NCBI GenBank assembly: GCA_964508305.1
Contig: CAZDSX010000006.1
Location: 14,151-71,663, forward strand
DNA: 57,513 bases
Reading direction: 5' to 3'
DNA from: an uncultured Bacteriovorax sp.
Lineage (GTDB): Bacteria > Bdellovibrionota > UBA1018
Shown here: in pieces, positions 28,989-45,410 of the stretch
How the letters are laid out: each line of letters opens with the position of its first letter
Numbering within the stretch: position 1 is the first letter of the stretch
Notes under the pieces: model-generated
What the model was told of the DNA's origin: nothing
The model's database searches: none
The model's input: only the letters and a program-made list of their open reading frames with translations
Translations under genes and position numbers: made by a program

Positions 28989-29010
28989 GGGTCTTTTTCC
29001 TTGTTCGATC

Positions 29011-29496
29011 TCAGTGGCCCTTGCCCGAAAGTCCGTCGATCAGCTGATCTACGCCCTGCTGGGTAAGGTTCTCGTGGTAATCATCATTGAGCATCATGGC
29101 GGGCGCGGTGCCGCACGCGCCAAGGCACTCTTCTTCTGCCAGGGTGAATTTTCGGTCGGGAGTGGTTTCGCCGCACTTGATTCCGAGCTTCTTTTCCAGA
29201 TGCTCGACCAACTCATCGGCGCCGCGAAGGCAGCACGCCACGTTCGTGCAAACCTTGATGTGGTACTTGCCCACGGGCTTGAGGTTGTACATCGTGTAGA
29301 AGCTGGCCACTTCGCGCACCTGTGCGGGGTGGATCCCGATGTATTCTCCGATTTCCGCCAGCACTTCCTTCGGAAGCCAGCCATACTCTTCCTGTGCGGC
29401 ATGCAGGGCGGGCAACAGCAGCGCGACCTTGGTCGGATAGCGCGGCTCGAGCTTCTTCATTGCGTCGTAGAACTTCTGTGAAAGCTGCTTTGACAT
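29011..29496 (-). CDS. nuoE: NADH-quinone oxidoreductase subunit E
   Basis: VASFYTMY, CTNVACCLRG, ECLGACG 2Fe-2S ligands; start set at MSKQLSQ. Confidence 0.96.
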   Translation of the reverse strand: MSKQLSQKFYDAMKKLEPRYPTKVALLLPALHAAQEEYGWLPKEVLAEIGEYIGIHPAQVREVASFYTMYNLKPVGKYHIKVCTNVACCLRGADELVEHLEKKLGIKCGETTPDRKFTLAEEECLGACGTAPAMMLNDDYHENLTQQGVDQLIDGLSGKGH

Positions 29497-29498
29497 AA

Positions 29499-30767
29499 TC
29501 AGCGGTCGAGCTCCCCTGCGATGATGTTGATTGAGCCGAGGTTTGCGACCATGTCGGCGAGCTTGGCCCCCTGGGACATTTCGCTGAGGCCCTGGTAGTG
29601 CCACACGGACGGTCCGCGGATCCTCATTCGGTGTGCCCGCGATGCCCCCTTGCTCACGATGTAGAAACCGAGCTCTCCGTTGCTTGCCTCAAAAGTCGTG
29701 TAGGCCTCGCCAGCCGGGACGTCGAATCCGGTCATGAAGAACTTGAAGTGATGGATCAGTCCCTCCATCGTGTTGAACACGACGTCCTTGTCCGGAATGC
29801 GAACGCGCTTGTCCTCCGCCCAGATGGGTCCGGGCTGCAGGCGATCGGCGCACTGGGCGATGATATTGAGGGACTGGAAGATCTCGGCCATTCGGACAAG
29901 GTAACGGTCGAAGACATCGCCGTTCTTGCCAACAGGAACATCAAACTCGACGTTCTTGTAGAACATGACTGGCTGATCGCGCCTGAGGTCCCGGTCAATG
30001 CCCGACGCCCTTGCGGACGGCCCGGAGTAGCTGTAGCGCATGCACTGCTCGCGCGTGAACACCCCCACCCCCTGCGTGCGCTGGCACCAAATCCGGTTAT
30101 TGGTGAGAAGCTTGTCCATTTCCTGCACGGTCTTGCGAGTCCGAAGGACCCAATCCTTGACCTCCTTTTCCCATCCGGGGGGAGCGTCGTGCATCAGGCC
30201 GCCGATTCGCGTGTAGGAAGTCGTGAGCCGAGCACCGCAAAGCTTCTCGATGAGCGTGTAGGCCTCTTCCCGCTGGTGGAACCCATACAAAAAGAAGGAA
30301 AACGCGCCCAGGTCGACTGCGTTGATCCCCACGCAAATCAGGTGGTCGATCACACGCGCCATCTCGGCGCAAATCATCCGGATCCAAACCGCGCGGGTGG
30401 GGACTTCGATTCCCATGAGGCGCTCGACCGACATGGCATAGGTGACGTTGTTGATCAGCGCTGAACAATAGTTCAGGCGATCCGTGTACACGATGAAGTT
30501 GTGGTAGGTGCGGTTTTCCCCGAGCTTTTCCTTGGCCCGGTGGGTGTATCCAAACTCACAGTAGGACTTTTCGATGGTCTCGCCGTTCATCCTGGCACAC
30601 ATGCGGAGCGCGCCGTGCATGGCAGGATGCGTGGGCCCGATGTTCACATAGACCCGGGAGTCCTTCCAGAGATCATCTGGATCACTCTCGTGGGGAACAT
30701 CGACTGTGATCGAGTAGTTCTCGGACTCGGGCAGGCCAAACTCGCGATGATTTACCGGTTTTTCCAT
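29499..30767 (-). CDS. nuoD: NADH-quinone oxidoreductase subunit D
   Basis: GPTHPAMHGALR, DRLNY, EASNGELG, GSINIIAGELDR. Confidence 0.97.
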   Translation of the reverse strand: MEKPVNHREFGLPESENYSITVDVPHESDPDDLWKDSRVYVNIGPTHPAMHGALRMCARMNGETIEKSYCEFGYTHRAKEKLGENRTYHNFIVYTDRLNYCSALINNVTYAMSVERLMGIEVPTRAVWIRMICAEMARVIDHLICVGINAVDLGAFSFFLYGFHQREEAYTLIEKLCGARLTTSYTRIGGLMHDAPPGWEKEVKDWVLRTRKTVQEMDKLLTNNRIWCQRTQGVGVFTREQCMRYSYSGPSARASGIDRDLRRDQPVMFYKNVEFDVPVGKNGDVFDRYLVRMAEIFQSLNIIAQCADRLQPGPIWAEDKRVRIPDKDVVFNTMEGLIHHFKFFMTGFDVPAGEAYTTFEASNGELGFYIVSKGASRAHRMRIRGPSVWHYQGLSEMSQGAKLADMVANLGSINIIAGELDR

Positions 30768-30770
30768 TTC

Positions 30771-31340
30771 TCAGTCCTTGAGCAGGTCGACGTTGATCGG
30801 CATGGCATCCGGGAAGAGCTGGTAGCCGCGAAGCGGGTAGTCCTTGCGGAGCGGGTGCCCCACCCATCGCTCATCCATGAGGATGCGTCGCAGGTCCGGG
30901 TGGCCCTCGAACTTCACTCCAAACATGTCCCAGACCTCACGCTCCGGCCAGTTGGCGCCGTCCCAGACTCCCGTAACCGAGGGAACAGGCTTGCCCTCGT
31001 TCACCTGGACCTTGAAGCGGATGCGCGCACCCGTGGAAAATGACGTCAGGTTGTAGACCACCTCAAATCGCGGCTCTACTTCCTCGTCCGTAGCCGTGAT
31101 GTCGGAGAGGAAGGCATATTCAAAGCCTTCAGACTCCTTTGCAAAGCGCAGCACCTCTACGATTGCCGCGGCCTCAACGTAAACCACCGGAACATCAACG
31201 GGATGCTCTCCGGGCCAGCGGATCTCGGTGATCTTGGAGCCGAACTGCGCCTCAAGCTTCTGGGACTGTTTCTTCCAAAGCTCGGCGTGTTTCTTGGCAA
31301 AATCGCCATAAATGGTCGGAACCGGCGTGCGAATATCCAT
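30771..31340 (-). CDS. nuoC: NADH-quinone oxidoreductase subunit C
   Basis: RFEVVYNL, WPEREVWDMFGVKFEGHPDLRRIL, GHPLRKDYP; TAATG overlap with the nuoB stop at 31340. Confidence 0.96.
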   Translation of the reverse strand: MDIRTPVPTIYGDFAKKHAELWKKQSQKLEAQFGSKITEIRWPGEHPVDVPVVYVEAAAIVEVLRFAKESEGFEYAFLSDITATDEEVEPRFEVVYNLTSFSTGARIRFKVQVNEGKPVPSVTGVWDGANWPEREVWDMFGVKFEGHPDLRRILMDERWVGHPLRKDYPLRGYQLFPDAMPINVDLLKD

Positions 31341-31843
31341 TAGACAGTGCCTCCGCGGGCTTCGCGCTCGCGGCGCTGGGAGTGCGTGTCTCCCTTTTGG
31401 ATCTTCTCCTGGAGCCTCATCAGGGCATGAAGCACGCCCTCGGGCGCCGGGGGACAACCAGGCACGTAGATATCGACCGGAACCACCGTGTCGATGCCCT
31501 GTGTGACGCTATAAACATTGAAGATGCCGCCCGAAGAGGCACAAGCCCCGAACGACATGACCCACTTGGGGTCAGCCATCTGGTCGTAGATATTGCGAAG
31601 CACCGGCGCCATCTTGGCATTCACGATTCCGGCAACGATCAGCAGGTCTGCCTGCCGCGGAGAAAACCGAATTGCCTCCGCGCCAAAGCGGGCCATATCG
31701 TAGTCAGAGCAAAGCGTGGCCATCATCTCGATCCCGCAGCAGCTCGTGCCGAAGGGAAGCGGCCAGAGCGCATTCTTTCGGCCCCAACTGATGAAGTCGT
31801 CCAAGCGGGTGGTCAAGAAACTTGAGGATCCGTCTTTTGCCAT
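31340..31843 (-). CDS. nuoB: NADH-quinone oxidoreductase subunit B
   Basis: [26 protein letters not shown]. Confidence 0.97.
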
Positions 31844-31846
31844 AAT

Positions 31847-32206
31847 CTAATCCCACTCCAGCGCGCCCTTGCCCAGGACATAGAAGTAGCCCACGAGCAG
31901 GATTGCCACGAATACCGCCATCTCCACGAGGATGAAGGCGTTGATTGAAAGATACTTTTTGTAGACCACGGCCCACGGATAAAAGAAGAGCGCCTCTACG
32001 TCGAAGAGCAGGAAGAGGATGGCCACGAGGTAGAATCGCACGCTGAAGCGCTGGTGCGCATCGCCGACCGGATCCATCCCGCACTCAAAGGGCATGTTCT
32101 TTCGCTTGTTCGGGGACTTGGGTCCAAGCAGCGACGAAAGCAGAAGAGCGCCTCCGCCGATGGCTGCCCCAACGGCCATCAGGATCAAAACCGGTAAGTA
32201 GTCCAT
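31847..32206 (-). CDS. nuoA: NADH-quinone oxidoreductase subunit A
   Basis: PFECG, RFYLVAILFLLFDVE, YPWA; start set at MDYLPVL. Confidence 0.96.
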   Translation of the reverse strand: MDYLPVLILMAVGAAIGGGALLLSSLLGPKSPNKRKNMPFECGMDPVGDAHQRFSVRFYLVAILFLLFDVEALFFYPWAVVYKKYLSINAFILVEMAVFVAILLVGYFYVLGKGALEWD

Positions 32207-32243: not shown

Positions 32244-33725
32244 CTACCAGAAAATAAACCGGAGTGACTGACTCGCCCATCGAAGGAGTGCGTCCGCAAA
32301 AATTGGCGCAAGCACGAGGGGCACACCTAGACAAAAAAGGAACACGCGCTGTTCCAGGGCGGGGGCAGGAGGCTCACCGACCTCAGACATACTCTTTTCG
32401 CCAACAGGCAGAAGCAGCGCCAGGAGAAGACGACCTGCCGCCACTACCGTCAAGGTCATGGCGCCCAGCCCGAGCACGGCAAGCACATGCCACTCCCGGC
32501 GGACTGCCGCCCCGATGAGTGCAAACTTGCCAATGCTGCCGGCAAACGGAGGGAGCCCGAGCCAGGACACCGTGAAACAAAGGAGGGCTACGGCCTCCCA
32601 GGGGCGATCCCTCAGTGAGCCGCGCAGGCCCGAGAGCTCGGCCGTTCCGCTCCGGGCGACCCCAAGGCTCAGGACATACGAAACCCCGGCAAGCGAGACG
32701 AGGTCGACCACGAGGTTGAACAGGATTGCGGCGAGGCCGACTTCTTCAAGGATCAAGAGGCCGAGGAGCAGTAGCCCGGTCTGCGAGAGGGCCACACACG
32801 CAAGGAGACGCTTGGCATTTCCCTGCCTGACGGAAAGAAAAGCGGGCACCAGGAAGGAGAGCCCGGCACAAAACGCGACCCAAAGCGTCCAGTCCCACCC
32901 GCCCAGCGGCAGCCACTTTCCTGGATCCAGTGCCGCTTGCGAGAAGACGACGACCCAGAGTCGCGCGGCGACGGCAAATCCGGCCGCGCGAACCCCGGCG
33001 GCCAGGAACACACCGGCGGGTGAGGGCGCCCCCTGCAGTACGTCGATGGACCAAAGCTGGGACGGAAAAGCGACCATCGCCGAGGAGAGGCCCACAAAGA
33101 GGGTGGCAAAAACCGCGAGACAAAAGGCCGGCCCGGGAGGGGAGAGCACGAGTCGCTGGTGGACCTCGTAGATATTGGCGCTTCCCGTGTGGATGAAGAG
33201 CGCCATTGCTGCAAGGAGCAGGAACACGCCCGAGGTCGAGGCAACGCCAAGCCACTTCACAGCGGCTTCGGCAGACTGGTGGTGGCGCCGACCAAAGCCA
33301 GCCAGAAGGTATCCCACCAGTGATGCCGACTGGATGGAGAGCGCCGAGACAAAGAGGTTCGATGACTCCCCCGCAAGCATGAGTGCCAGCGCACCGACCA
33401 GCACCAGCGCGCAGAACTCGGCCCGGGAACCACCTTCAAGCTCCTCGCCCAGGCAGGCGGAGGAGACGACGACGGATGCCAGGAGCAGGAACACCAGCTT
33501 GAAATAAAGGCTGAAGCCGTCGAGCGAGAGCGCCCCTCCAAACAGCTGGACCGCACCCTGCTGGTAGCTCACGAGCGTCTGGATGAAGGCGCCGCCCAGT
33601 CCAAGGAGTGCCGTCGGAAGAATGAGCCTCACCCTCTCGCCGTGGTGTGCGCTCTCACTGAGCACGAGGCCAATCACGGTGGCCACGATGTAGATCTCCG
33701 GAAGAAGGAGTCCGAGGTCCTTCAT
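32244..33725 (-). CDS. divergent NuoN-like antiporter-type subunit (key charged residues largely substituted)
   Basis: EAAVKW, FPSQLWSIDVLQGAP, KRLLAC and LGLPPFAGSIGKF align with NuoN; LE>IQ, K>A, K>R. Confidence 0.85.
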   Translation of the reverse strand: MKDLGLLLPEIYIVATVIGLVLSESAHHGERVRLILPTALLGLGGAFIQTLVSYQQGAVQLFGGALSLDGFSLYFKLVFLLLASVVVSSACLGEELEGGSRAEFCALVLVGALALMLAGESSNLFVSALSIQSASLVGYLLAGFGRRHHQSAEAAVKWLGVASTSGVFLLLAAMALFIHTGSANIYEVHQRLVLSPPGPAFCLAVFATLFVGLSSAMVAFPSQLWSIDVLQGAPSPAGVFLAAGVRAAGFAVAARLWVVVFSQAALDPGKWLPLGGWDWTLWVAFCAGLSFLVPAFLSVRQGNAKRLLACVALSQTGLLLLGLLILEEVGLAAILFNLVVDLVSLAGVSYVLSLGVARSGTAELSGLRGSLRDRPWEAVALLCFTVSWLGLPPFAGSIGKFALIGAAVRREWHVLAVLGLGAMTLTVVAAGRLLLALLLPVGEKSMSEVGEPPAPALEQRVFLFCLGVPLVLAPIFADALLRWASQSLRFIFW

Positions 33726-33735: not shown

Positions 33736-35337
33736 TCACTCTTCCTTCTTTTTGGGTTCAATTCCTTCGGCTGGTGCCGCGGAGGGCGAGGGCGCCGGAA
33801 CGGCCGCCGCCGGCGACGTCGCAGTCTTTTCCTCGGATTTCCCTGCAATCAGGGCAACTGCCGCCGGACGAACCCAGTCCAGAAACGGCTTGGGATAGAA
33901 ACCGATCAAGACAAGCAGCACCAGCAGCGGAACCAGAAACCCGCGTTCCCGCGCGGTGAGCTCGGCTTCGGTCGAAGACTTTCGCTCGGATCCTCGCTCG
34001 GGCCCGAGGAAGATCTGCTTGAATACCCCAAACAGGCTGTAGGTCACGAGCATGAATCCTGCACCCACCCCGAAGAGCGAAACGGGGTGGGTGGTGAAGC
34101 TGCCCATCACGATCAGGCTTTGCCCGACGAATCCACCCAGTCCGGGGAGGCCAAGGAAGCCGCCCAGTGCAAGCGCCATCACCGCGGCAGCGGCGGGGGC
34201 GCGCTCCACGAGCCCGCCGGCAGCACCCACTTCGTGGAGCCCCGTTCGATCCGCCAGTGCCCCGAACAGCAGGCCCATTGAGGTGACTGCAAGGCCGATG
34301 GCAAGCTGGTGGTAGATCACTCCAACGAGGGCACTGGGATCCTGGCTTCCCAATCCGATCAGAGAAAGGCCGAGATGCACGAGGACCAGCCGCGAGAGAA
34401 GCCCCGAGAGCCTGGTCTGCGAGAGGATGGTTACCGAGCCGACGAAAAGGTTCACCACTCCCGCAAGCACGACCCAGCTCGAGACCGAGTCAAGGACATC
34501 CTGGAAAAGCAGGTGGGAGACTCGGGCAAACATCATCACCGCCGAGGGCACGACCACTCCGGCCACTGCGACAAATACGGATGCAGGCGCCTCGTTTGCA
34601 AATTCCGCAAACCAGCCGTGGAAAGGCCAAACCGGGGCGCGTAGCGCCAGTCCCAGGCATACGAACAGGAAGGCGAGGTGCGATACGGACACCGAGATTC
34701 CCGCAAGGACGATTTCCTTTGCGGGAACTCCGCCCGAAGACACAAGGTCCCGGATCAGGAAGCTGTGTGGATCCTTCGCATAATAGATGAGGATGAAGGC
34801 CGCAAATAGAAGGCTGTTTCCGATGCTGGAGGTCACCAGCGAGCGAAACGCAGCCTGCTCCTTCTTTTCTCCGCCCCAAATGCCCACAAGAAAAAACACG
34901 GGTACCGCGGTTAGACCCCAGAAAAAGAAGAGCAGGAAAAGGTCTTGTGCCGTCGCCGCGCCCAGGAGGGCGGCCTGAAGGATCAGGAGGAGCGAATAAA
35001 GTCCTCGTGCGCCCCGGGCGCGATCCCACTCGGAGGCAATCAGCACCGGAAAAACAGTGCTGATCAGCATCAGCATCAGGACATTGGTTCCATCGACCGA
35101 AAGCTCGTAATTGATCGCGTAGGACCCGATCCACGGAAGCCTATCCACGAGATGCGGGCCCGCCGTGCCCACATCACCCGCGCCGATCAGGGTCAGCACG
35201 ACGCCACCCAACAGGGCCGATGCGATGCTCGCTCCAAGCGCAAGCCATCGCGCCGAGGCGCCCGGGCTGGCTGCGGCCTGGAAGATGGCGCCCAGCAGGG
35301 GAAGCAGAATCATGCCCGTCAGGAGATGGCTGTTCAC
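33736..35337 (-). CDS. divergent NuoM-like subunit (key charged residues substituted)
   Basis: LPWIGSYAINYELSVDG, FLVGIWGG, LRAPVWPFHGW and LPGLGGFVGQ align with NuoM. Confidence 0.88.
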   Translation of the reverse strand: MNSHLLTGMILLPLLGAIFQAAASPGASARWLALGASIASALLGGVVLTLIGAGDVGTAGPHLVDRLPWIGSYAINYELSVDGTNVLMLMLISTVFPVLIASEWDRARGARGLYSLLLILQAALLGAATAQDLFLLFFFWGLTAVPVFFLVGIWGGEKKEQAAFRSLVTSSIGNSLLFAAFILIYYAKDPHSFLIRDLVSSGGVPAKEIVLAGISVSVSHLAFLFVCLGLALRAPVWPFHGWFAEFANEAPASVFVAVAGVVVPSAVMMFARVSHLLFQDVLDSVSSWVVLAGVVNLFVGSVTILSQTRLSGLLSRLVLVHLGLSLIGLGSQDPSALVGVIYHQLAIGLAVTSMGLLFGALADRTGLHEVGAAGGLVERAPAAAAVMALALGGFLGLPGLGGFVGQSLIVMGSFTTHPVSLFGVGAGFMLVTYSLFGVFKQIFLGPERGSERKSSTEAELTARERGFLVPLLVLLVLIGFYPKPFLDWVRPAAVALIAGKSEEKTATSPAAAVPAPSPSAAPAEGIEPKKKEE

Positions 35338-35346: not shown

Positions 35347-37239
35347 CTAGCGATTGATGTGATTCCAAAAATGTAGCAACAGCGCGAGCGTGAAGCCAAT
35401 TGTAAACAACAGATAGCCCTGCACGGAGCCGCTCACCAGCAGCTGCAATCCCTTGGCTGGAATTTCCACTGCCGCGCGCGTGGCTGCGTCCATCCTTGCG
35501 CGCGTCCATTGATCAAATCGTGAGAATCCCGCAATCAGCGCTGCTCCGATCGCGCTCGCCCTGGCAAGCACGCCAAGCACGGCGCGGGCACGAATCAAGC
35601 GATCGCCGAATGCGGGAGCCGAGCGAAGCGCCCCTACTGCCCAGTCCACGAGGCGGGTCACGCCAAAACCCGTGGCTGCAAACTTCCAGCTGAGCGCGCC
35701 GGATCGGAGCACCTTCTCCGGAACCTGGAATAGAAGCAGGAGCGCGAGTGCCACCATCCAGGCCCAGGAAATCAGCTGACCGGTCTGGCCTTGAGCCTGG
35801 CCGCTTGAGCCAAACAGCTCCGCGCCAAGCGAGGGCCCCACTCCCAGGTCACGCGAGGCGGTGAACACCCCGAGCCACTCTCCGGTCCAGAATATCGCAG
35901 AAGAAAACAGCAGGATCACCGTCGGCGCGGTCAGGCGCCACCCCGTGCTCCAGGTCTCTTCCCCGCGGAGCTGATTGCGTGCAGCCGGAGAGAGCGTGCA
36001 GAGCGCCGCAACGGAGACCATGACCCATCCAAGAACAAAGCAGGCCCCGTCCAGTGCGCGATCAATGCTCGTCAGGCAGGAAACAAGGACCGCCGCTCCC
36101 GCGAAACACAGCCCACCCGACCAGGAGAGGGCGATGAATGCCTTGACCAGCTTCTCAGGAAGCTCAGCCTCCTTTGCTCCCGTGTCGGCGGGACCGCGAA
36201 GGACCAGGGCCGTTGCCCACGCCAGTGAACCAAAGACAAATGCCGCAGTTCCTCCGGCCTGCCTGCCGGCAAGCAGCATGACCGCCGCCGAAAGCATGGT
36301 TGCCGCACCAGAAAGGGCAACAAGTCCGCCGCCGGAGAGGGCCGAAGAGATGGCGGACCATGCCGTGAGCGCGGCAAGGAGCAGTGCCGGGGCCACGAGC
36401 CAGGGCACCAGCCCGCTCGAAACCAGATCAGGCGTCAGCCGGTAGATCATCGCGAGTCCCGACCACGCCGATGCGCACGAGACGAGGAGGGCGCTGGTCA
36501 GTGGCCCCTTGAATCTGGCCGGGGCCTGAACCACCCACCCCATGGTCGGAAAGGCGCCGGCCTGCAAGAGCGCGCCGAAAAAAAGCATCGCCAGACCAAC
36601 GGGCTGTTCTGCGGCGGAAAAACCGTTTGTTTCCGTCCAAGAGGTCGTGCCCCCGCCCGCAAGGATGGCCGCCAGGCCGAGGGCGGACATGAGGATTCCC
36701 AGCGCTCGCTCCCGCGAAAAAGAGGTGGCCATGTCCGCGCCGTCTTGTCCGCTCCTGCCGGAGTGGACCAGCACGATCCAGCCGGAGAGACCCGAGACGA
36801 GCTGTCCCAGCAGAATCACCCAGAGACTGGTGGCCCACCAGGAGAGCGTCACACCACACAGCGCAAGCGTGGCCGCGCCCTGGGCGAAGCCGATGCGGCC
36901 CTTGGGGCTGGAAACAATGGGCTCAAACAGGAACACATATCCAAGGATCAGCGCCATGATGCCGCCGGCGGCAACGCCTGCCCGAGTCGCGATCACGCCC
37001 GCTTCGACGCTGGCTCCGGGGGATGGCAGAGTGAAGTAAGATAGAGACCAGGAGGCCGCATCCCCAGAGCCGATGCTCGCGGCACCGATTCCCAGAAAAA
37101 GCAGAACCAGAAGCCAAGTCACCAGGGGGGCGACGGAGCGAAGGATTGACCAGCGAGGCGAGCCCCTCAGCGAAGAGACGCCGGCAAGCGCCCCCATCAC
37201 GAGGGCCAGGGCAAAAACCCAGGGAAAGGCATTAATCAT
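35347..37239 (-). CDS. highly divergent NuoL-like subunit
   Basis: Many TM helices, NuoL-like length and operon position; LLQAGAFPTMGWV and PLTSALL align with GKSAQVPLYVWL and PTPVSALI; C-terminal SGSVQGYLL resembles NGSIQVYA. Confidence 0.7.
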   Translation of the reverse strand: MINAFPWVFALALVMGALAGVSSLRGSPRWSILRSVAPLVTWLLVLLFLGIGAASIGSGDAASWSLSYFTLPSPGASVEAGVIATRAGVAAGGIMALILGYVFLFEPIVSSPKGRIGFAQGAATLALCGVTLSWWATSLWVILLGQLVSGLSGWIVLVHSGRSGQDGADMATSFSRERALGILMSALGLAAILAGGGTTSWTETNGFSAAEQPVGLAMLFFGALLQAGAFPTMGWVVQAPARFKGPLTSALLVSCASAWSGLAMIYRLTPDLVSSGLVPWLVAPALLLAALTAWSAISSALSGGGLVALSGAATMLSAAVMLLAGRQAGGTAAFVFGSLAWATALVLRGPADTGAKEAELPEKLVKAFIALSWSGGLCFAGAAVLVSCLTSIDRALDGACFVLGWVMVSVAALCTLSPAARNQLRGEETWSTGWRLTAPTVILLFSSAIFWTGEWLGVFTASRDLGVGPSLGAELFGSSGQAQGQTGQLISWAWMVALALLLLFQVPEKVLRSGALSWKFAATGFGVTRLVDWAVGALRSAPAFGDRLIRARAVLGVLARASAIGAALIAGFSRFDQWTRARMDAATRAAVEIPAKGLQLLVSGSVQGYLLFTIGFTLALLLHFWNHINR

Positions 37240-37273: not shown

Positions 37274-37570
37274 CTAGTGCCTCATCCTTCCTAGCTCGGA
37301 CATCTCGGGGCGCGATCTCAGGAGATGGAGCCTGACTGCGAAGCCCAGTCCTACCAATGCCTGGATGTGGGCAAAAACCATCACGAGAAGTGCCATGGAG
37401 CGCGCGCGATCCAGAAACCCAGGCGCCGCTCCCGGGTCCGCCATCAAGACCAGGGCGAGAACAAGGCCCGAGAAGAAGAGCTGTACCCCAACCAGCACGC
37501 CGAGCAGGCTGCGCTGGGTGAGTACCGCAAAAGTCGAAAGCGAAAACAGGGCGGCGAGCGCAATGGTCAT
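37274..37570 (-). CDS. divergent NuoK-like subunit (both Glu replaced by Gln)
   Basis: 98 aa, 3 TM; GVQLFFSGLVL vs SIELMLNAVNL, AHIQALVGLG vs AAAESAVGLG. Confidence 0.8.
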   Translation of the reverse strand: MTIALAALFSLSTFAVLTQRSLLGVLVGVQLFFSGLVLALVLMADPGAAPGFLDRARSMALLVMVFAHIQALVGLGFAVRLHLLRSRPEMSELGRMRH

Positions 37571-38097
37571 GGACCACCCCCGATGTCGGGATTTCTCTCG
37601 ACCCCGCCCGCACGTGTGATCACTCCCGTGGCAATCGCAGCCGCAAGCGCCACTCCCGCAAGAAGCTCGACCAAGACGAATCTCTCGTCAAAGTCCGTCG
37701 AACCGCGAATGGGCGAGGCTCCGGTGCCTTCGGCCACCGTGGTGCCCGCGGTGGCAAGCTCAAGCAACCACCACACCACCACTCCAACGCCGATGCTTGC
37801 CAGTGCGTGGAATGAGCGGGCAAGAGGGCTGCGGGAGGGCCCATTCACCGCAACCGATACACCCACTCCAAGGAGGTCTGAGTGGAAAAAATACACTGCC
37901 GCCACAAGTGTCGAAGCGATCCAAAGCAGAACAGCCAGTGTCTCTGCGCCCGCGGAGAGCAGGATCGATCCTCCGGCCAACTGGCCGAGCCAAAGTGAGA
38001 TGACCGCCCGCCTGGGCTCCCCCGCCGTGCACACTGCTGCGGCCGAACCAAGGACGACGGCCGATGCAAACCAGACCCCGGGCGAATCAACGATCAT
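37567..38097 (-). CDS. highly divergent NuoJ-like subunit
   Basis: 176 aa, about 5 TM, lies between the I-like and K-like genes with ATGA overlaps; FVLVELLAGVALAAAIA resembles PFELTSVLLLAGIVGA. Confidence 0.65.
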   Translation of the reverse strand: MIVDSPGVWFASAVVLGSAAAVCTAGEPRRAVISLWLGQLAGGSILLSAGAETLAVLLWIASTLVAAVYFFHSDLLGVGVSVAVNGPSRSPLARSFHALASIGVGVVVWWLLELATAGTTVAEGTGASPIRGSTDFDERFVLVELLAGVALAAAIATGVITRAGGVERNPDIGGGP

Positions 38098-38636
38098 TCA
38101 ACACCGCCCGCTTCTGACTGAAGCTCTCGCTGTCGGCGCCAGCGCTCGCGCATTTCCCTCGAAATGGGTCCTCGCCCATAGGCAGCCCGCAGATCGGAGG
38201 CCTGCTCTGCGGCGCCCTCATAGCGCCGGGAGTGGGTGAGCGAGGTAGGCTCACAGGCCTCAACGCACAGGCCGCAAAACAGGCACTTCGAGTAATCGAT
38301 GTTGAACGTGCTGACCCAGAGCTTTCCGGGCTTTGGACCTTCCTCGGTATGGATCTCAAAACAGCCCGTAGGACACACTTCCGAACAGGCATAGCAACCG
38401 GTGCAGCGCTGGATGTCGTTCTTCAGGAGACCCCGACTCCGGGTGGGCAGCTCGTCCGGCGTTCGCGAAGAGACCGGATCGGGATAGAGCTCGGTGACCT
38501 CCTTTTTGGCGTCAGAGCTCGAAAGAAGATAGGAGAGCCCCGTGCTGAGGCCGCGCCAGAGGGTCAGGAGCGACCTGAACAGCGATGCAAAATAGCCGCG
38601 AAAGCTGCCAAAAAACGTGCTCTCCGTCGTCCTCAT
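38094..38636 (-). CDS. NuoI-like 2x[4Fe-4S] subunit
   Basis: VTELYPD...RSRG, CTGCYACSEVCP and CLFCGLCVEACEP; start at ATG 38636 overlapping the H-like stop. Confidence 0.9.
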   Translation of the reverse strand: MRTTESTFFGSFRGYFASLFRSLLTLWRGLSTGLSYLLSSSDAKKEVTELYPDPVSSRTPDELPTRSRGLLKNDIQRCTGCYACSEVCPTGCFEIHTEEGPKPGKLWVSTFNIDYSKCLFCGLCVEACEPTSLTHSRRYEGAAEQASDLRAAYGRGPISREMRERWRRQRELQSEAGGVE

Positions 38637-39646
38637 GCAGGCCCCCCGGAAAATAGGCTGGCCCCCACCAGTGCGATCAGGGCGAGCGGCGCCAACACCC
38701 TCCACGCAAAGTCATGTGCCTGATCGGAGCGGACTGAAGGAAGCGTCCTTGAAAGGAGTGAAACCAAAAGCAGAAGTACCAGTGTCTTGATGGCGACCAC
38801 TCCCGCTCCCAGCATCATTGCCACGGGGAGGTCCTGGCTTGCCCCCGAGACCAGCAGCTGCGGAAGGGCTGCACCCCCGAAATAAACTTTTACTCCAAGA
38901 AGAAACCAACAGAAAACGGCCACCCGCTGGCTCCAGCGAACCCAGATCAGGCGAATTCCCGCCTCTCCGGGAAATCCCGCCACCACCCACGCCAGCGGCT
39001 CGGAGTCGCGCTGGAACGGACGCGCCGAGAACATCAGCAGTCCGGCGGCGAAGAAAACCGCCGCAGAAATGGCCGTAAATGGGCTCGAAAACACGAGCCA
39101 CCGCCAGGGCGCCCAACCCTGGGCCTGGTCAAACCGCTCCCACGCGAGACCTCCAGCAGCAAGGCCCGCATGCAGGAACGCAATCAGCGCCGCCGGAAAC
39201 CCAGCAACAGCAAGCGCCACCTGGCGGATCGACCCGAACCGGGATTCAACCGCCCCGTCTCTCCAGCTTAGCAGGAGACCCAGCCACGCAAAGGCGAGCG
39301 CGAAGAACAGGGATAGCAGGGCTGCCATGGGCGCATCGAGAAGCGGCGCTCCCGGAACCACAGGAGTAATCGACAAGAGAGCAAACAAGGGAACACCCTG
39401 CAGCCACCAGAGGGCGGGCCCGCGATCCGCCTTCGATCCGGGCCGGATCTTCTGGAGCAGTCGGAGGAACTCGGCAAGGGGCTGCAGCCAGCCGCCCTGC
39501 CCCGCGCGGCTCGGACCCACGCGGGCCTGCATGTCGGCACCCACCTTGGCGTCCATCCAGGACCAGAGATAAACCCCGGGCAGGACGAACACCAAGAGGA
39601 TCAGGAGGCTCTCGGTGGCAGCAGTGACCCAGAAGGATTCCATCAC
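38633..39646 (-). CDS. divergent NuoH-like subunit
   Basis: KVGADMQARVGPSRAG..GWLQPLAE, RPFQ, YFGG, LPSVRSDQ; many acidic residues lost. Confidence 0.85.
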   Translation of the reverse strand: MMESFWVTAATESLLILLVFVLPGVYLWSWMDAKVGADMQARVGPSRAGQGGWLQPLAEFLRLLQKIRPGSKADRGPALWWLQGVPLFALLSITPVVPGAPLLDAPMAALLSLFFALAFAWLGLLLSWRDGAVESRFGSIRQVALAVAGFPAALIAFLHAGLAAGGLAWERFDQAQGWAPWRWLVFSSPFTAISAAVFFAAGLLMFSARPFQRDSEPLAWVVAGFPGEAGIRLIWVRWSQRVAVFCWFLLGVKVYFGGAALPQLLVSGASQDLPVAMMLGAGVVAIKTLVLLLLVSLLSRTLPSVRSDQAHDFAWRVLAPLALIALVGASLFSGGPA

Positions 39647-40794
39647 TTGTCCACCTCGGTGATCTGAAGGTCGAGGCTGTGAAGCAGGAGCGAGAGGTCT
39701 TGAATCGGCGCATCCGCCAGGTACTCGGGGAGGGCCCGGTGGAGCGCCATTGAAGGAGTGAAGAACTCCACCTCCGTGGGGCCAGGCTTTTCTCCGTCCG
39801 AAGCAAGAGCAACCGAGAGGCGGCCGCGTGGCGACTCCACTGCTGCTGTTGCGCGTCCCGCTGGAAGCGGCGCGGACTCCTGCTGCTTCTGTCGATAGGG
39901 TCCCGCTGGAAGGCGCTGACTCAGCTCCATCAGCAGCTGGGCGCTTTGCACGATTTCGTGGAGACGATAAACAAACCGATGATGCGCGTCTCCTGCGCTC
40001 ACGACGGCGTCGACCGTGCCGATTTCGGTGAGCCTTGCACCAAAGTGCGGTCGCCCCTCATCCATGACCCTCAGGTCGGCCGAGGGAGAGAAAACTTTTG
40101 CTGGAATGCCGGTGATCTTGTGCCTGTCGACCATTGACCTGCCGATCACGCCCCGTCCCCCAACTCGCCTGACAAAGGCCTCGTTGTAGGTCAACAGGTC
40201 GTTGTATTCCTTCACCCGCTGGAGGACCTGCTGGCTGGTCTCCTGCACGCGCTCCAGAAATCCATCCGTCACATCCTCGCGGACCCCGCCCGGCAACAGA
40301 AATGCGAGCGCATGCCTCGCCCCACTCAAGAGCTCCAGAAGGTCGAGAATCCGTTCACGCTCGCGCAACAGGAGGTGGAACGCCGCCTCAGAGCCTGCTG
40401 CGCGTGAGACCTTGGCAAGATGAAGGAGGTGCGAGGAGATCCGGGAAAGCTCTCCAAGAATGACCCGGATTCCGCGGCCACGCGCCGGCGTCTCAATTCC
40501 CCCAAGCTCCTCGGCGGCGAGGCAAAAGCACCACTCATAAAACAGGGCCGCCTCTGGGTCGATGCGATCCAGGAAGGGCATCGCTCCACGCCAAGTCTGG
40601 CGCGTGAGGATGGCCTCAACCGAGCGGCGAGTGAAGCCCGTCTCAATCTCCGCCTGGCGCACCAGTTCGCCGTCGAGCTGGAGGTGGATACGGTAGGCTC
40701 CGGATAAGTCAGAGTGGAATGGCCCGATGGACCAGGCGATGGGCCTGGACCGAACGATCTCTCCGCCGCTTGGGAATGGCGCTCCACCGCTCAT
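39643..40794 (-). CDS. divergent NuoD-like subunit (no NuoC fusion, no NiFe Cys, quinone-site His/Tyr substituted)
   Basis: GPFHSDLSGAYR, DRIDPE, ELSRISSHL, ESPRGRL, HSLDLQITEVDK; start at ATG 40794 overlapping the B-like stop. Confidence 0.88.
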   Translation of the reverse strand: MSGGAPFPSGGEIVRSRPIAWSIGPFHSDLSGAYRIHLQLDGELVRQAEIETGFTRRSVEAILTRQTWRGAMPFLDRIDPEAALFYEWCFCLAAEELGGIETPARGRGIRVILGELSRISSHLLHLAKVSRAAGSEAAFHLLLRERERILDLLELLSGARHALAFLLPGGVREDVTDGFLERVQETSQQVLQRVKEYNDLLTYNEAFVRRVGGRGVIGRSMVDRHKITGIPAKVFSPSADLRVMDEGRPHFGARLTEIGTVDAVVSAGDAHHRFVYRLHEIVQSAQLLMELSQRLPAGPYRQKQQESAPLPAGRATAAVESPRGRLSVALASDGEKPGPTEVEFFTPSMALHRALPEYLADAPIQDLSLLLHSLDLQITEVDK

Positions 40795-41318
40795 CGAAGA
40801 TCCCACTCGTCCGTTTCCATCGTTGCTGCACGATCGGGATGCCGGGGCAGCTTGCGCGCGACGATTTTTCGGCCCCGGATCTTTTCCTGGAGCCGGATCA
40901 GGCCATCCATGATCGCCTCTGGCCTGGGGGGGCAGCCGGGGACGAAGACATCCACGGGGATCACGCCCGAAAGGCCCGCGACCGTCTCGCCGGCCGTTGC
41001 GTCAGGCCCAAAGGCCCCGCCAGAGCAGGCGCAGGACCCGACTGCAATCACATATCGCGGCGTTGGCATCTGCTCGTAGACCCGGCGCACTTCGGCGGCC
41101 GCCTTCTGGGTCAGCGCTCCTGAGACGATCAGGAGGTCTGAGAATATCGGATCTTTTTCAGGCAGTGCGCCGAACCGCTCAAGGTCGTACCTGCACCCCG
41201 TGACCTGGAGCAGTTCGTCGGCACAGCATCCGGTATTCACGGCAAAATATCGCAGGGCCGAGGCCTGTGCCCATCCAAGCACCTCGGCAAGCGTCGACGA
41301 AATGTAGCCGCCGCTCAT
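40791..41318 (-). CDS. NuoB-like subunit with intact N2 ligands
   Basis: GCCADE, YDLERFG, GSCACSGG, VPGCPPRPEA. Confidence 0.92.
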   Translation of the reverse strand: MSGGYISSTLAEVLGWAQASALRYFAVNTGCCADELLQVTGCRYDLERFGALPEKDPIFSDLLIVSGALTQKAAAEVRRVYEQMPTPRYVIAVGSCACSGGAFGPDATAGETVAGLSGVIPVDVFVPGCPPRPEAIMDGLIRLQEKIRGRKIVARKLPRHPDRAATMETDEWDLR

Positions 41319-41743
41319 GGCCCACCCCCGGCGCCGCCCTCGGGATGTGTCTCATCAGCCTCCCGATACACGCGATCATGCCAGCGGAGATCTCCCTTGC
41401 GGTTGGCATAGACCAGGGCGGTGGCCCCGACGAGCGTAACCGAGAGGACAAGAAGGGTGGTGGCCGGGCTTCCGCCCAGCGCAGCAAACGGCACCAGCAG
41501 TACGAACGGAAGAGCGAGCAGGCCTGCCAGCTGCACGGCGGTGAAATATCGGGTGTTGATGGATTGAAGAACGGGGATGTCGCGCTCGCTCGGCGGGGCC
41601 TCTGCCGCCGCGCCATCTCCCCTGGGGCCAAGACCCGCCAGTCGCGTCAGAAAATGCAGCAGCACCGGTACCGCAAGGGCCACGGCTACGGTGACAAAAA
41701 CAACGCGATAGGCATCCCAGCCATGGGACGCAACCTGATCCAT
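41315..41743 (-). CDS. divergent NuoA-like subunit
   Basis: 3 TM, first gene of the cluster; SINTRYFTAV..LLALPFVLLVPFA and NRKGDLRW align with RFYLVAILFLLFDVE..YPWA and KGALEW. Confidence 0.75.
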   Translation of the reverse strand: MDQVASHGWDAYRVVFVTVAVALAVPVLLHFLTRLAGLGPRGDGAAAEAPPSERDIPVLQSINTRYFTAVQLAGLLALPFVLLVPFAALGGSPATTLLVLSVTLVGATALVYANRKGDLRWHDRVYREADETHPEGGAGGGP

Positions 41744-41813: not shown

Positions 41814-41826
41814 CCTCAGGAATTTA
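41808..41826. promoter_or_regulatory. palindrome over the mfd -10/start, candidate operator or hairpin
   Basis: TAAATTCC-tca-GGAATTTA. Confidence 0.45.
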
Positions 41827-44800
41827 TGGTTGCGAGCTCGCTCTCCAAGATCTTCCGGTCAGCCGCCTCGCTCCGCGAGCCCATGCGCATCTCTGGTGTT
41901 CGCGGCTCGGCCCGCTCCTGGTTCCTGCTCCGCCTCCAGGAAGAGGTCCGCGGAACCATCCTCATGCTCTGTCCGGACGACGACTCGGCTGCCGAGATGC
42001 TTTCGGATTATGAGTCCCTGCGCGGACTGGCTCCGGGACCAACGATCGATGGGCTGCACTTTCCACACTGGGAGCACAGCCTTTACTCCAGCGTCTCGCC
42101 CTCCATCAGGATCCGGCTCCAGCGTGCGCTAGTCCTTGGCCAGCTGGCGGACACCCCCGACACGCCGCGGATCATCTTTACCTCTCCTCCTGCTCTCGCT
42201 TCGCGCACCCCGCCGCCTGCGATGTTCTCTTCCGCCGCACTGAAGATCCGCCCGGGGCGTACGGACCTCCCCAGAGAGTCGCTCCTTCGATCGCTCGTGG
42301 ACGCTGGCTACCTTCGGGTCGAAACCGTTGAAGACCCCGGCACCGTCGCACTAAGAGGAGAGATCCTCGATGTCTATCCGGTGGGGGCCGAGCACCCCTT
42401 CCGTGTCGAATTCTTTGATGACGAGATTGAAAAAGTTCGGCCGTTTGACCCCACCTCCCAACGGACTGCGCCCGCACACTCGGGTGCGAACGGGATCACG
42501 GTTCTTCCATGCCGGGAGGTGCTGATCAACGCCTCGACCGCACCCCAAATCCGAGAAGCCCTCAAGCTCCATGCTGACGACGCAGGAATCCCGAGGACGG
42601 TGCGGGATCCCATCCTCTCGTCGCTGGCTCCGGGGGCCTATCCGGAACGCGCCGAGGCCTGGGCCCCGTTTGCCTTCCCGTCGCCAGCAAGTCTCGCCTC
42701 ATTTATCCCCTCCTCGGCGTGCTGGGTCATGTGGGACGACCTTGGGTGTGACCAGGCGTGGGATGAGTTCTGGCAAAAGGAGCGGCAGTCCCACTCCAGG
42801 CTCGTGGATAACCCGGACCTTGCCGGCAGCATCCTGCCCCCGCCTGAGCGAGCATACGACCCCGCGGGTCACTCCTCGCCCTCTCTGCATTTCGCCTACC
42901 GACTTCAAAAGGTGGCGCTCACTGATCTCGACGATCTGCCGACCATCGAGAGTGACGATGCGCCCGCAAGCCAGCATCGTGCGGGGATCCGCACCAACGA
43001 AGATCTATCCGCCGCCCCGGGCAAGTCCTCTCTGGAGCTGCTCTCTGAGAAGTTCGCCCTTTGGAAAAAACAGGGCTTCAGGGTGGTGGCTGACTCCGCA
43101 ACCCAGGGACAAGCCGAACGCCTGGCACACCTCCTGTCGGAGCGAGGGATTGCGGTCAAGACCTCCGGGGCGCCGGAGCCGGGCGTGATCCTCTGCAGGG
43201 AGTCGGCGCTCTCCTCGGGATTCCGCTGGCCCAGTGAGGGATGGGTCTTCCTCACCGAGGCCGAGGTCCTTGGGCGCGCAAAGTCCGGCGGCCGCTCCCG
43301 CGGCCGCACGAAGGCCCTCACTCGAAAACAGTCCGAAGCTTCAAATGCCGAGGACTGGGCCGGTCTCGATGCCCTCTCTGACTTGTCGCCGGGGGACTCG
43401 GTCGTGCACATCGATCACGGCGTCGGAAGATACCAGGGACTCGTACGGCTTGAGCTGTCCGGGGCGCCTGCCGACTTCCTCCTTTTGGAATACGCCAACA
43501 AGGACAAGCTTTACCTTCCGGTCTACCGGCTCAACGTCATCCAAAAGCACGGCGCACTGGGGGACTCCGTCACCCTAGACAAGCTCGGAGGCCAGCAGTT
43601 CCAGAAGACCAAGGAAAAGGTCCGCGACTCGGTTCGCAAGATGGCGATCGACCTCGTGAGCCTCTATGCCGAACGGACCATCCGAACGGGCTTCAAGTTC
43701 TCCACTCGCGACGCGGAGTTTGAGGAGTTTGAAGCGCGCTTTCCCTATGACGAGACCCCCGACCAGGCAAAGGCCATCGACGCCGTGCTCGACGACATGG
43801 CCGCGGGCAAGATCATGGACCGCCTGGTTTGTGGTGATGTTGGATACGGAAAAACAGAGGTCGCCATGCGCGCAGCCTTCCGCGCCGCCAGCGATGGAAA
43901 ACAGGTCGCCGTCCTGGTGCCCACGACGCTGCTTGCCCATCAACATGAGCAGTCCTTCCGAGCCCGCCTTGCCGGACTTCCCGTCAACATCGCCTCCCTC
44001 TCCCGCTTCAAGTCCGCCAAGGAGCAAAAAGAAACGCTCAAGTCGCTGCGCGAGGGAAAGGTCGACATCCTGATCGGCACGCATCGCCTGCTTTCCAGGG
44101 ACGTGGAGTTCAGGGACCTGGGACTGCTGATTGTCGACGAGGAGCAGCGCTTTGGCGTTGAACACAAGGAAAAGATCAAGAGCCTTAAGCTCAATGTGCC
44201 CGTGATCACGCTCACTGCAACGCCCATCCCCAGGACCCTCCACATGGCTCTCTCCGGACTTCGGGAAATCAGCCTGATCCGGACGCCTCCGGTGGACCGA
44301 CTTCCCATCCGTACCTTTGTCTCCAAACAGGATGATGCGCTGATCAAGAGGGCCGTGGATTTTGAGCTGAGCCGCGGCGGCCAGGTCTTCTACCTATACA
44401 ACCGCGTACAGTCGATCTACGAAGCCGCGTCCCACCTCCAGAAGCTCTGTCCGCAGGCCAGGGTCGTGGTCGGACATGGGCAGATGTCCGAGGGAGAGCT
44501 TGAGGCATCGATCCGGGATTTCTATGACAAGAAATCCAACGTCCTGGTCTGCACGAGCATCATCGAATCCGGGATCGACCTGCCGTCCGCAAATACCATC
44601 CTCATCAACCGCGCGGACACCTTCGGGCTCGCGCAACTCTACCAGATCCGCGGCCGCGTCGGCCGCGGCCAGCAACGCGGTTATGCCTACCTCATGATCC
44701 CTGCCGAGCAGTCGGTGAGCGAGGACGCCAAGAAGCGCCTGGATGTGCTTCAGCGTTTCGTCGAGCTGGGAAGCGGCTTCAGCGTGGCGTCGCACGACCT

Positions 44801-45410
44801 CGAAATCCGCGGGGGAGGGGACCTGCTGGGCCCGCAACAGTCGGGAAACATCCAGGCCGTGGGCTTTGAGATGTATCTTTCCCTGCTTGAGGAGGCTGTG
44901 CGGGAAATCCGGCTGCGGCCCGGCGAAGCGCGAGTCGAGCAGGCGCCCGAACCTGAGATCAAGGCCCCATTTCCGGCCTTCCTGCCTGAGGACTACGTAC
45001 CCGATGTCCACCAGCGGCTATCATTATACAGGAAGCTCTCCGCCTGCCGGAGCGACGAGGAGGTTGATTCGCTTGAGGAGGAGCTTCGGGATCGCTTTGG
45101 TCCTTTGCCGGCCGATGCCTCCAGCCTGCTCTGGCTGATCCGGGTCAAGGTGCACCTCAAGCGTCTGGGAATTGACGCCCTGACGGTGGGACCAGAGCGG
45201 ATCGTCGTTGTTCCCGGCAAGAAGAGTGCGCTGGACCCCACTCGGGCCATTGCCCTGGTCTCGGCACACCCCAAAAAGTACCAGCTTACTCCTGATTCCC
45301 GCTTTGTCGCCAGCCGCTCGGCCGGGTCGATGAAGGACCTGTACTTCACGATCCAGGACCTGCTCCATCACCTCCAGCCGGCGCAAGGCGTTGCCAACGC
45401 GCGTCGGTGA
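41826..45410 (+). CDS. mfd: transcription-repair coupling factor
   Basis: UvrB-like N-terminus, CarD-like RID (VVHIDHGVGRYQG), GDVGYGKTEV, DEEQRFG, TATPIPRTL, QIRGRVGR, TRG motif, C-terminal TRCF domain. Confidence 0.98.
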   Translation: MVASSLSKIFRSAASLREPMRISGVRGSARSWFLLRLQEEVRGTILMLCPDDDSAAEMLSDYESLRGLAPGPTIDGLHFPHWEHSLYSSVSPSIRIRLQRALVLGQLADTPDTPRIIFTSPPALASRTPPPAMFSSAALKIRPGRTDLPRESLLRSLVDAGYLRVETVEDPGTVALRGEILDVYPVGAEHPFRVEFFDDEIEKVRPFDPTSQRTAPAHSGANGITVLPCREVLINASTAPQIREALKLHADDAGIPRTVRDPILSSLAPGAYPERAEAWAPFAFPSPASLASFIPSSACWVMWDDLGCDQAWDEFWQKERQSHSRLVDNPDLAGSILPPPERAYDPAGHSSPSLHFAYRLQKVALTDLDDLPTIESDDAPASQHRAGIRTNEDLSAAPGKSSLELLSEKFALWKKQGFRVVADSATQGQAERLAHLLSERGIAVKTSGAPEPGVILCRESALSSGFRWPSEGWVFLTEAEVLGRAKSGGRSRGRTKALTRKQSEASNAEDWAGLDALSDLSPGDSVVHIDHGVGRYQGLVRLELSGAPADFLLLEYANKDKLYLPVYRLNVIQKHGALGDSVTLDKLGGQQFQKTKEKVRDSVRKMAIDLVSLYAERTIRTGFKFSTRDAEFEEFEARFPYDETPDQAKAIDAVLDDMAAGKIMDRLVCGDVGYGKTEVAMRAAFRAASDGKQVAVLVPTTLLAHQHEQSFRARLAGLPVNIASLSRFKSAKEQKETLKSLREGKVDILIGTHRLLSRDVEFRDLGLLIVDEEQRFGVEHKEKIKSLKLNVPVITLTATPIPRTLHMALSGLREISLIRTPPVDRLPIRTFVSKQDDALIKRAVDFELSRGGQVFYLYNRVQSIYEAASHLQKLCPQARVVVGHGQMSEGELEASIRDFYDKKSNVLVCTSIIESGIDLPSANTILINRADTFGLAQLYQIRGRVGRGQQRGYAYLMIPAEQSVSEDAKKRLDVLQRFVELGSGFSVASHDLEIRGGGDLLGPQQSGNIQAVGFEMYLSLLEEAVREIRLRPGEARVEQAPEPEIKAPFPAFLPEDYVPDVHQRLSLYRKLSACRSDEEVDSLEEELRDRFGPLPADASSLLWLIRVKVHLKRLGIDALTVGPERIVVVPGKKSALDPTRAIALVSAHPKKYQLTPDSRFVASRSAGSMKDLYFTIQDLLHHLQPAQGVANARR

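Follow-up and report, generated by a model that had tools for sequence, protein, structure and literature searches.

A ten-gene complex I look-alike of an apparently Bdellovibrionota-related clade that keeps its iron-sulfur ligands and lacks the canonical quinone-site residues and nearly all of the proton-pumping ones

The Nuo11 type of respiratory complex I consists of NuoABCDHIJKLMN without NuoEFG and is found in Chlorobi, in some Firmicutes and as the cyanobacterial and plastid NDH-1. More distant relatives are the Ehr complexes ("energy-converting hydrogenase-related"), a name reportedly given in a 2013 study. PMC6349859 presents these complexes as superfamily members defined with reference to hydrogenases, with a presumed redox-coupled ion translocation via Mrp-like subunits and a function that is not assigned. 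The proximal cluster of the MBS complex is held by three Cys and has an open iron, at which catalysis was proposed to take place; the charged axis of its membrane part is retained (PMC8165549). Loss of ligands with retention of the genes was described in Acetobacteraceae for a "deranged" bc1 complex and for COX1-like proteins, which were proposed to be retained as structural stabilisers of complex I or of a partner enzyme (PMC10715153). The presence of two nuo clusters in Bdellovibrionota is mentioned in a Peredibacter genome paper that did not analyse their residues. Here a stretch of 57,513 nucleotides from an uncultured Bacteriovorax sp. (assembly GCA_964508305.1, contig CAZDSX010000006.1, positions 14,151 to 71,663), referred to as the window, was analysed. 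It carries on its minus strand a ten-gene complex I look-alike, A'B'D'H'I'J'K'L'M'N' (32244-41743), whose genes follow the nuo order and are marked with a prime to distinguish them from those of a canonical nuo operon located immediately downstream. The NuoB-, NuoD-, NuoH- and NuoI-like genes occupy its middle (38094-41318, minus strand). No description of this primed family was found in the literature searched, the coverage of which was incomplete.

The primed proteins of the window keep all 12 ligands of the iron-sulfur (Fe-S) clusters N2, N6a and N6b, against only 4 of 36 catalytic and pump residues that had been listed beforehand (Fisher p = 2.6e-8). The state of each residue was read from alignments to the co-resident canonical copies and to E. 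coli, whose nuo operon served as numbering ruler; Thermus thermophilus numbering was anchored on the Nqo4 loop 33-QHPSTHG-39 quoted in PMC7434922. In D', the position of the quinone ligand His38 of Nqo4 (E. coli NuoCD H224) is taken by S35 within the motif HSDLSG, that of Tyr87 (NuoCD Y273) by P84 within DRIDP, and that of Asp139 (NuoCD D325) by A136. Asp139 is the ion-pair partner of His38. Arg84 (NuoCD R270) is kept as R81, and GFTRR is found in place of GYTHR. A first-pass annotation of the window, made from the sequence alone, had proposed that the Fe-S wire is preserved while the quinone-binding site is dismantled. Its motif calls in the B-, D- and I-like subunits proved exact in position, all on the minus strand, and the canonical site is gone not only in the window but in every member of the family.

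This family was delineated by several searches. A search of genome contigs with the single D' protein led to one locus, L003, in a metagenome-assembled genome (MAG) of an uncultured Bacteriovoracaceae, a family that is part of the phylum Bdellovibrionota. The metagenome scan was built on an alignment of 11 sequences. When 1.84 billion cluster representatives were searched exhaustively, about 50 clusters (50% identity) came up without an intact His/Tyr/Asp triad, which rank before the first intact NuoDs or are mixed among them. The D' relatives are 33-87% identical to the protein of the window, originate all from metagenomes or MAGs and are labelled "Bdellovibrionales bacterium", "Pseudomonadota bacterium" or "uncultured Bacteriovoracaceae bacterium"; the 20 family representatives that were looked up have metagenome or MAG sources only, with no isolate among them. 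A total of 43 primed-type loci, some of them near-duplicates, were fetched for comparison.

No primed-type D' keeps the intact triad, neither in the 43 loci nor among the ~50 cluster representatives. Pro, Ser and Ala predominate at the substituted pocket positions, which differ from one member to the next, and no new conserved catalytic residue appears there in the ~50 representatives. As a control, 38 intact Nuo11-type loci obtained in the same scan, whose NuoD is 30-36% identical to D', retain every scored residue, with the replacement of Asp139 by Glu in two of them.

D' has the fold of NuoD: its AlphaFold2 model (pLDDT 87.4, pTM 0.88) finds complex I 49-kDa/NuoD chains as top Foldseek matches, with TM-scores of 0.82-0.88. 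Assignment to the group 4 [NiFe] hydrogenases (Ech/Mbh/Hyc) was rejected on the basis that D' has no Ni-Fe Cys at either CxxC site, its N-terminal loop reading GPFHSDLSG and its C-terminus LDLQITEVDK. Hydrogenase models score far under NuoD models on this protein.

The Fe-S subunits show the opposite state to that of the quinone pocket. In B', C31 and C32 (within CCADE, with E35), C96 (GSC) and C129 (GCPP) align to C63, C64, C129 and C158 of E. coli NuoB, the ligands of N2. The two CxxCxxCxxxC motifs of I' (38370-38405 and 38253-38285, minus strand) provide eight Cys that align to NuoI C60, C63, C66, C70, C99, C102, C105 and C109, the ligands of N6a and N6b. In the related loci all eight Cys are found in every I' scored and all four in 35 of 36 complete B'. 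The NuoB residues near N2 (E67, D77, R80 and D94) are conserved in B' as well. In the comparison to L007, the closest relative, constraint within the cluster is strongest on B' and I' (dN 0.060 and 0.054; 90% and 93% amino acid identity, respectively) and weakest on J' and L'. The alignments thus support the first-pass proposal that the Fe-S ligands are under selection. It should be kept in mind that structural reasons would suffice to conserve clusters that form an integral part of the NuoB and NuoI folds.

Some features of these two subunits are of narrower distribution. The first-pass annotation had pointed out two extra Cys in B' and the change of SPRQAD to DPIFSD (41136-41153). All are present in the window, yet none characterises the family: C42 is found in 21 of 36 relatives and C98 in 6 of 36, while DPIFSD is restricted to the subclade of the window and most relatives have DPRQAD. 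The extra Cys were rejected as ligands for their lack of conservation. Gly at the first tandem N2 Cys occurs in a single B', that of locus L035, and likewise in NuoB of the intact control L062. I' ends in a tail of ~45 amino acids (38094-38250, minus strand) with the pattern FG(R/K)G.(I/V)(S/T)...R.KW...R, which is conserved in the I' family and absent in canonical NuoI; this tail might replace a contact that is usually made by NuoC or the N-module.

Ligand conservation could reflect a true oxidoreductase, in which the N6a-N6b-N2 chain would carry electrons for an acceptor other than quinone, or for a new donor, at or near N2, without energy conservation. Such an enzyme would account for the 12 conserved ligands, for B' and I' being the slowest-evolving primed genes, for the retention of the conserved NuoB residues around N2 and for the presence in D' of Arg84 together with 68% of the universally conserved NuoD residues. 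It would also have precedents in MBS, MBH and Ehr (PMC8165549; PMC6349859) and, in the superfamily, in substrate switches between H+, polysulfide, methanophenazine and quinone. The variable Pro/Ser/Ala pocket without a new conserved catalytic residue speaks against it, as does an N2 held by four Cys, in contrast to the open-iron site with three Cys that is proposed for MBS. Moreover, donor or accessory genes were not seen in primed-type loci, and the upkeep of a large membrane arm devoid of pump residues would be left unexplained. An oxidoreductase of this kind is a serious rival to the partner role beside complex I that is set out below, and the main one, though the less probable of the two. 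The first-pass annotation had inferred redox chemistry with another acceptor or donor, redox or O2 sensing, or Fe-S storage. It is supported in part: selection on the ligands was upheld, and redox chemistry, sensing or storage would be one possible reading of that selection.

By homology the ten genes correspond to NuoA, NuoB, NuoD, NuoH, NuoI, NuoJ, NuoK, NuoL, NuoM and NuoN, subunits that form the quinone and membrane modules in complex I, at very different degrees of divergence. B', D', H', I', K', M' and N' are recognised as Nuo families by Pfam and NCBIfam; none reaches an equivalog cut-off, and B' passes the cut-offs of NuoB subfamily models of NCBIfam. A', J' and L' gave no match in the Pfam and NCBIfam searches. 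Profile-profile alignment with hhalign related A' to NuoA (Prob 96.7%, E 3e-10; 28 A' and 21 NuoA sequences), J' to NuoJ (Prob 99.0%, E 2e-18) and K' to NuoK (Prob 97.6%). The case of L' is the most extreme: BLASTP to NuoL gave E = 0.13 and hhalign to a single sequence 1.5%, and homology could be established only by aligning the profiles of the two families globally (Prob 99.8%, E 2e-27 over 628 columns at 11% identity; 20 L' and 14 NuoL sequences). L' thus aligns with NuoL over its full length, and the C-terminal anchor LQ.GSVQGY of NuoL is retained in it. The fraction of universally conserved residues that is retained declines between the peripheral and the membrane arm, from.87 in I',.68 in D' and.65 in B' to.47 in M' and N',.45 in H', ~.2 in A', J' and K' and.07 in L'.

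The loss of residues in the membrane arm affects the coupling region and the pump modules alike; the corresponding residues are intact in the neighbouring nuo operon. In the coupling loop of A', D79 and E81 (E. coli numbering) are changed to Ala and Pro. H' has replacements at E157, R209, D213, E216, E218, E220, E228 and E241, and the acidic loop between transmembrane segments (TM) 5 and 6 and the E-channel glutamates are lost. It keeps R46, R51, K70, R148, K274, R293 and D295 unchanged, has a conservative change of D63 to Glu, and retains the TM1-2 loop and the C-terminal motif R.DQ..D..W(K/R)VL. In the alignments all three interfacial coupling loops (NuoA TM1-2, NuoD beta1-beta2 and NuoH TM5-6) read as altered.

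The possibility that a quinone, such as menaquinone, is still reduced through a site rebuilt with other residues bears on these data. The kept residues of H' (R46, R51 and K70, the D63 position as Glu, and R293/D295 in the C-terminus) and the NuoD fold of D' would be compatible with it. The equivalents of His38, Tyr87 and Asp139 are gone, however, being mostly Pro or Ala, the acidic loop of NuoH between TM5 and TM6 has disappeared along with that of NuoA, and equally diverged intact relatives, short-type NuoDs included, retain these residues. A rebuilt quinone site is improbable in view of this evidence.

Further along the arm, Y59 in TM3 of J' is replaced by Trp and the membrane glutamates E36 and E72 of K' are both Gln. 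In the 24 K' relatives scored the first of these positions is nearly always Gln, with one Asn, and the second mostly Gln, or else Ala, Leu or Pro. Like those of K', the coupling and E-channel positions of A', H' and J' are replaced throughout the family. L' has lost E144, D178, K229 (to Gln), H254, D303, H334, H338, K342 and K399. In M' the changes are E144 to Gly (TM5), K234 to Arg (TM7), K265 to Pro (TM8) and E407 to Gln (TM12), those of K234 and K265 being shared by 31 of 31 relatives scored. N' has E133 changed to Gln (TM5), K217 to Ala (TM7) and K247 to Arg (TM8), and keeps K395 (TM12); in the related loci the Arg at 247 is nearly invariant and the TM12 position stays Lys or Arg. The charged axis is neutralised or turned into residues incapable of proton shuttling, the typical exchanges being Glu to Gln or Gly and Lys to Arg or Pro, in a pattern that is conserved family-wide.

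A redox-independent ion transporter or antiporter of Mrp-like type, whose peripheral arm would be a vestigial plug, was weighed against this pattern. A transporter would suit the selection on A', H', J' and K' and on the three antiporter-like subunits, and positive charges are left in M' (TM7 Arg) and N' (TM8 Arg, TM12 Lys/Arg). The scored Lys/Glu pairs are those that are assigned to Mrp-type transport as well. They are now Gln, Gly, Pro, Ala or Arg, the pKa of which is too high, and would be unable to shuttle protons, and L' retains just 7% of the universally conserved NuoL residues. A transporter is thus very improbable. With quinone site, coupling loops and charged axis changed together, the primed complex, as judged from its alignments, could not be a canonical quinone-reducing proton pump.

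The primed cluster is maintained by purifying selection. Between the window and L007 the ratio of non-synonymous to synonymous substitution rates (dN/dS) of the primed genes is 0.04-0.20, with similar values for the housekeeping genes that flank the cluster (mfd 0.09); as dS is saturated, these ratios are to be read as akin to upper bounds. Reading frames are unbroken in the 43 primed loci. A collection of pseudogenes was rejected on the basis of the dN/dS values and the intact frames. Decay of a duplicate en route to loss would find an argument in the faster evolution of the primed copy, whose mean pairwise identity in 14 genomes is lower than that of the canonical one (B.62/.76, D.54/.78 and A.38/.69, primed and canonical respectively), and in the loss of C' in the lineage of the window. 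Locus L055 may lack membrane genes. The dN/dS values, the lack of frame disruption in 43 loci that span 33-87% D' identity, gene overlaps that are consistent with translational coupling and replacement residues that are family-specific and conserved effectively refute such decay. L055 (9095-17310) is very diverged, only B', D' and I' being detectable there; the ~4.8 kb between I' and the canonical nuoA are less than the length of J'-N' in the window, and its membrane genes may be lost or unrecognisable.

Concerning the origin of the cluster, D' is only 27% identical to the co-resident canonical NuoD and 30-36% identical to intact short-type NuoDs. It lacks an insertion of ~24 amino acids (MEGLIHHFK) of the co-resident NuoD, which is missing too in intact relatives of the 11-subunit type. 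The low identity to canonical NuoD and the absence of the MESLIHHF insertion in common with the Nuo11 type place the descent of the primed cluster, by sequence comparison, with an 11-subunit (Nuo11-type) complex rather than with a recent copying of its neighbour. A recent duplicate of the adjacent operon was rejected on the same identity and insertion character. Two loci of different state were observed besides. On L061 (6461-18852), a metagenome contig, a second nuoABCD comes immediately after a Nuo11-type cluster that is intact in all its catalytic residues; this is plausibly the undegenerated state of the tandem arrangement. L006 (8572-11706; P0022, P0024), at the mfd-linked position, codes for a D protein that keeps Tyr87 and has lost His38 and Asp139, for a B protein with near-canonical SPRHAD, for a NuoA still recognisable by Pfam and for C', the contig stopping before the membrane genes. 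L006 looks like an intermediate form, and forms of its kind suggest that Tyr87 disappeared later than His38 and Asp139.

The position of the cluster is fixed in the family. Where the contig suffices the gene order is constant: (uvrA-pgm-pdxA-surA-surA-)mfd, A'B'(C')D'H'I'J'K'L'M'N', nuoABCD and onwards (Table 1). C' is present in most lineages, including the more distant members, and was lost in that of the window, where B' and D' overlap directly and no gene for NuoC, NuoE, NuoF or NuoG is found in the primed cluster. The primed genes have mostly 4-nt overlaps and are otherwise spaced by 9-34 nt, which is consistent with most of them being translationally coupled. The canonical nuoA ATG lies 37 nt past the N' stop codon on the same strand, 37 nt being also the median gap in 26 loci, and no terminator-like signal above shuffled expectation is found at the N'-nuoA junction. 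This gene spacing suggests that the primed cluster and the canonical nuo operon are co-transcribed, which would give a single transcript of 24 genes. Genes for the N-module (NuoE, F and G) are present in one set, in the downstream canonical operon. Its NuoG (26293-27729, minus strand) is short, with 478 amino acids, and matches only the tail end (~46 residues) of the molybdopterin-oxidoreductase model. No accessory or donor gene was seen in any primed-type locus.

Two of the reading frames required correction of their starts. The longest open reading frame of I' begins at a GTG (38705) inside H', and comparison to L007 and an ATGA stop/start overlap with H' indicate the ATG at 38636 as the likely start. 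For nuoA, the mechanically called frame from the GTG at 32326 overlaps N', the conserved start being the ATG at 32206. On the other side of the cluster, the block mfd-surA-like-surA-like-pdxA-phosphoglucomutase-uvrA (41826-52423, plus strand) keeps its synteny in every related locus that extends far enough and is a useful anchor for spotting the primed cluster in new genomes.

Table 1. Genes of the primed cluster and its borders in the window.
Feature	Coordinates	Strand	Description
A'	41315..41743	-	NuoA-like membrane subunit, 142 aa; stop overlaps B' start by 4 nt
B'	40791..41318	-	NuoB-like N2 subunit, 175 aa; PF01058 E 1e-27
D'	39643..40806	-	NuoD-like, 387 aa (database copy from Met5, 383 aa); PF00346 E 2e-37
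H'	38633..39646	-	NuoH-like, 337 aa; PF00146 E 7e-31
I'	38094..38636	-	NuoI-like 2x[4Fe-4S] (N6a/N6b); Fer4 Pfam families; TIGR01971 E 2.5e-19, under its cut-off
J'	37567..38097	-	NuoJ-like, 176 aa; without Pfam match
K'	37274..37570	-	NuoK-like, 98 aa; PF00420 E 1.6e-8
L'	35347..37239	-	Extremely diverged NuoL-like, 630 aa; without Pfam/NCBIfam match
M'	33736..35337	-	NuoM-like antiporter-like subunit, 533 aa; PF00361 E 1e-34
N'	32244..33725	-	NuoN-like antiporter-like subunit, 493 aa; PF00361 E 1.5e-32
Canonical nuoA-N operon, 14 genes	18824..32206	-	Identified by Pfam; catalytic residues all intact
mfd	41826..45410	+	Divergently transcribed; upstream border of primed cluster in all related loci

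Three results go beyond the first-pass annotation, namely the loss of Asp139, a membrane arm without canonical proton-transfer residues and the fixed place upstream of the canonical operon; the last two change the likely function. The primed proteins would still assemble as an L-shaped complex with three [4Fe-4S] clusters. Canonical proton pumping would be beyond this complex, as would the reduction of quinone at the canonical site. Most likely its role would be tied to the active complex I with which it is presumably co-transcribed, as a structural or regulatory partner that does not conserve energy. Alternatively, the primed complex may be a second docking platform for the single set of NuoEFG, and for NuoC as well in the lineage of the window. 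The clusters would be retained because the NuoB and NuoI folds hinge on them, possibly also as an electron buffer. A partner of complex I is favoured because no other partner gene was seen in the primed-type loci and because the pocket positions are variable Pro/Ser/Ala instead of a new conserved catalytic residue. That a membrane arm of ~2,400 amino acids stays under selection without its pump residues suggests that the architecture as such has a role. The whole package, a non-pumping, Fe-S-bearing partner or dock of complex I, is given an even chance of being correct.

Several points weigh against a partner or dock. Assembly of the complex, its contact with complex I and the sharing of NuoEFG or NuoC are postulates of this view, and co-transcription is read from gene spacing only. 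Real electron transfer would account just as well for B' and I' being strictly conserved and slow to evolve, and for the conservation of the NuoB residues neighbouring N2. A purely structural role would come at the high cost of making ten extra subunits and three clusters. The conserved exchanges (M' Lys to Arg and Pro, N' Lys to Arg) and the Lys kept in TM12 of N' could serve an unrecognised transport or coupling.

A bolder form of the partner hypothesis is that the whole complex is a multi-subunit pseudoenzyme, retained in an uncultured, apparently Bdellovibrionota-related clade as an obligate co-transcribed partner of complex I, be it a scaffold, a heteromeric supercomplex partner or a NuoEFG dock that gates or buffers electrons. 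It is advanced tentatively, at less than an even chance. To our knowledge no bacterium is known in which an energy-converting complex is comparably maintained in its entirety though catalytically dead. If a structural or regulatory partner is the correct assignment, the pseudoenzyme concept widens from single proteins to a whole respiratory complex.

The primed family is a natural experiment in which invariant complex I residues (His/Tyr ligands, three coupling loops and the Lys/Glu axis) were removed together, the fold, the architecture and the Fe-S chain being still selected. A structure would reveal a scaffold whose charged axis is "frozen" as Gln and Arg, and biochemistry would tell whether the N6a-N6b-N2 chain functions independently of quinone. 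The family poses also an annotation problem. Its genes are labelled "NADH-quinone oxidoreductase subunit" or "hypothetical protein", and metabolic reconstructions could count a second complex I that does not work.

Among known systems the Nuo11-type complex I resembles the primed cluster most closely. The two have in common the gene set and order, a short-type NuoD, the tandem-Cys N2, an 8-Cys NuoI and the lack of N-module genes, and Nuo11-type proteins are the nearest intact sequences by similarity. The cluster of the window has 10 of the 11 Nuo11 subunits, NuoC being the one missing there. The intact Nuo11 members examined keep His38, Tyr87, Asp139, the acidic residues of NuoH, NuoA and NuoK and the antiporter Lys/Glu, which the primed family does not. 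Failing in quinone-ligand, coupling and antiporter features, the primed cluster is not classed as a complex I enzyme.

Ehr complexes, which were compared by their description and are defined loosely by phylogeny, belong like the primed cluster to the complex I/group 4 hydrogenase superfamily and combine a large subunit without catalytic ligands with Fe-S subunits that are kept. The primed cluster differs from them by its complex I order and subunits (A, J, K and an L with the long helix), by its complex I-type N2, by the disappearance of the ion-translocation residues and by its fixed position upstream of canonical nuo. In MBS/MBX, the membrane-bound sulfane-sulfur reductase of Pyrococcus (PDB access code 6U8Y), the large subunit is, as in the primed complex, neither a hydrogenase nor a quinone reductase and is associated with a three-cluster chain, and MbsL aligns full-length with D'. 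The contrast lies in the three-Cys proximal cluster and charged axis of MBS versus the four-Cys N2 and neutralised axis of the primed complex. Of the features of Mrp-type antiporters, the TM5 Glu and the TM7/TM12 Lys are lost, and a peripheral arm is present. The deranged bc1 complex is the case in which metal ligands themselves were lost, whereas in the primed cluster the Fe-S ligands are kept and the changes affect a whole complex of ten subunits.

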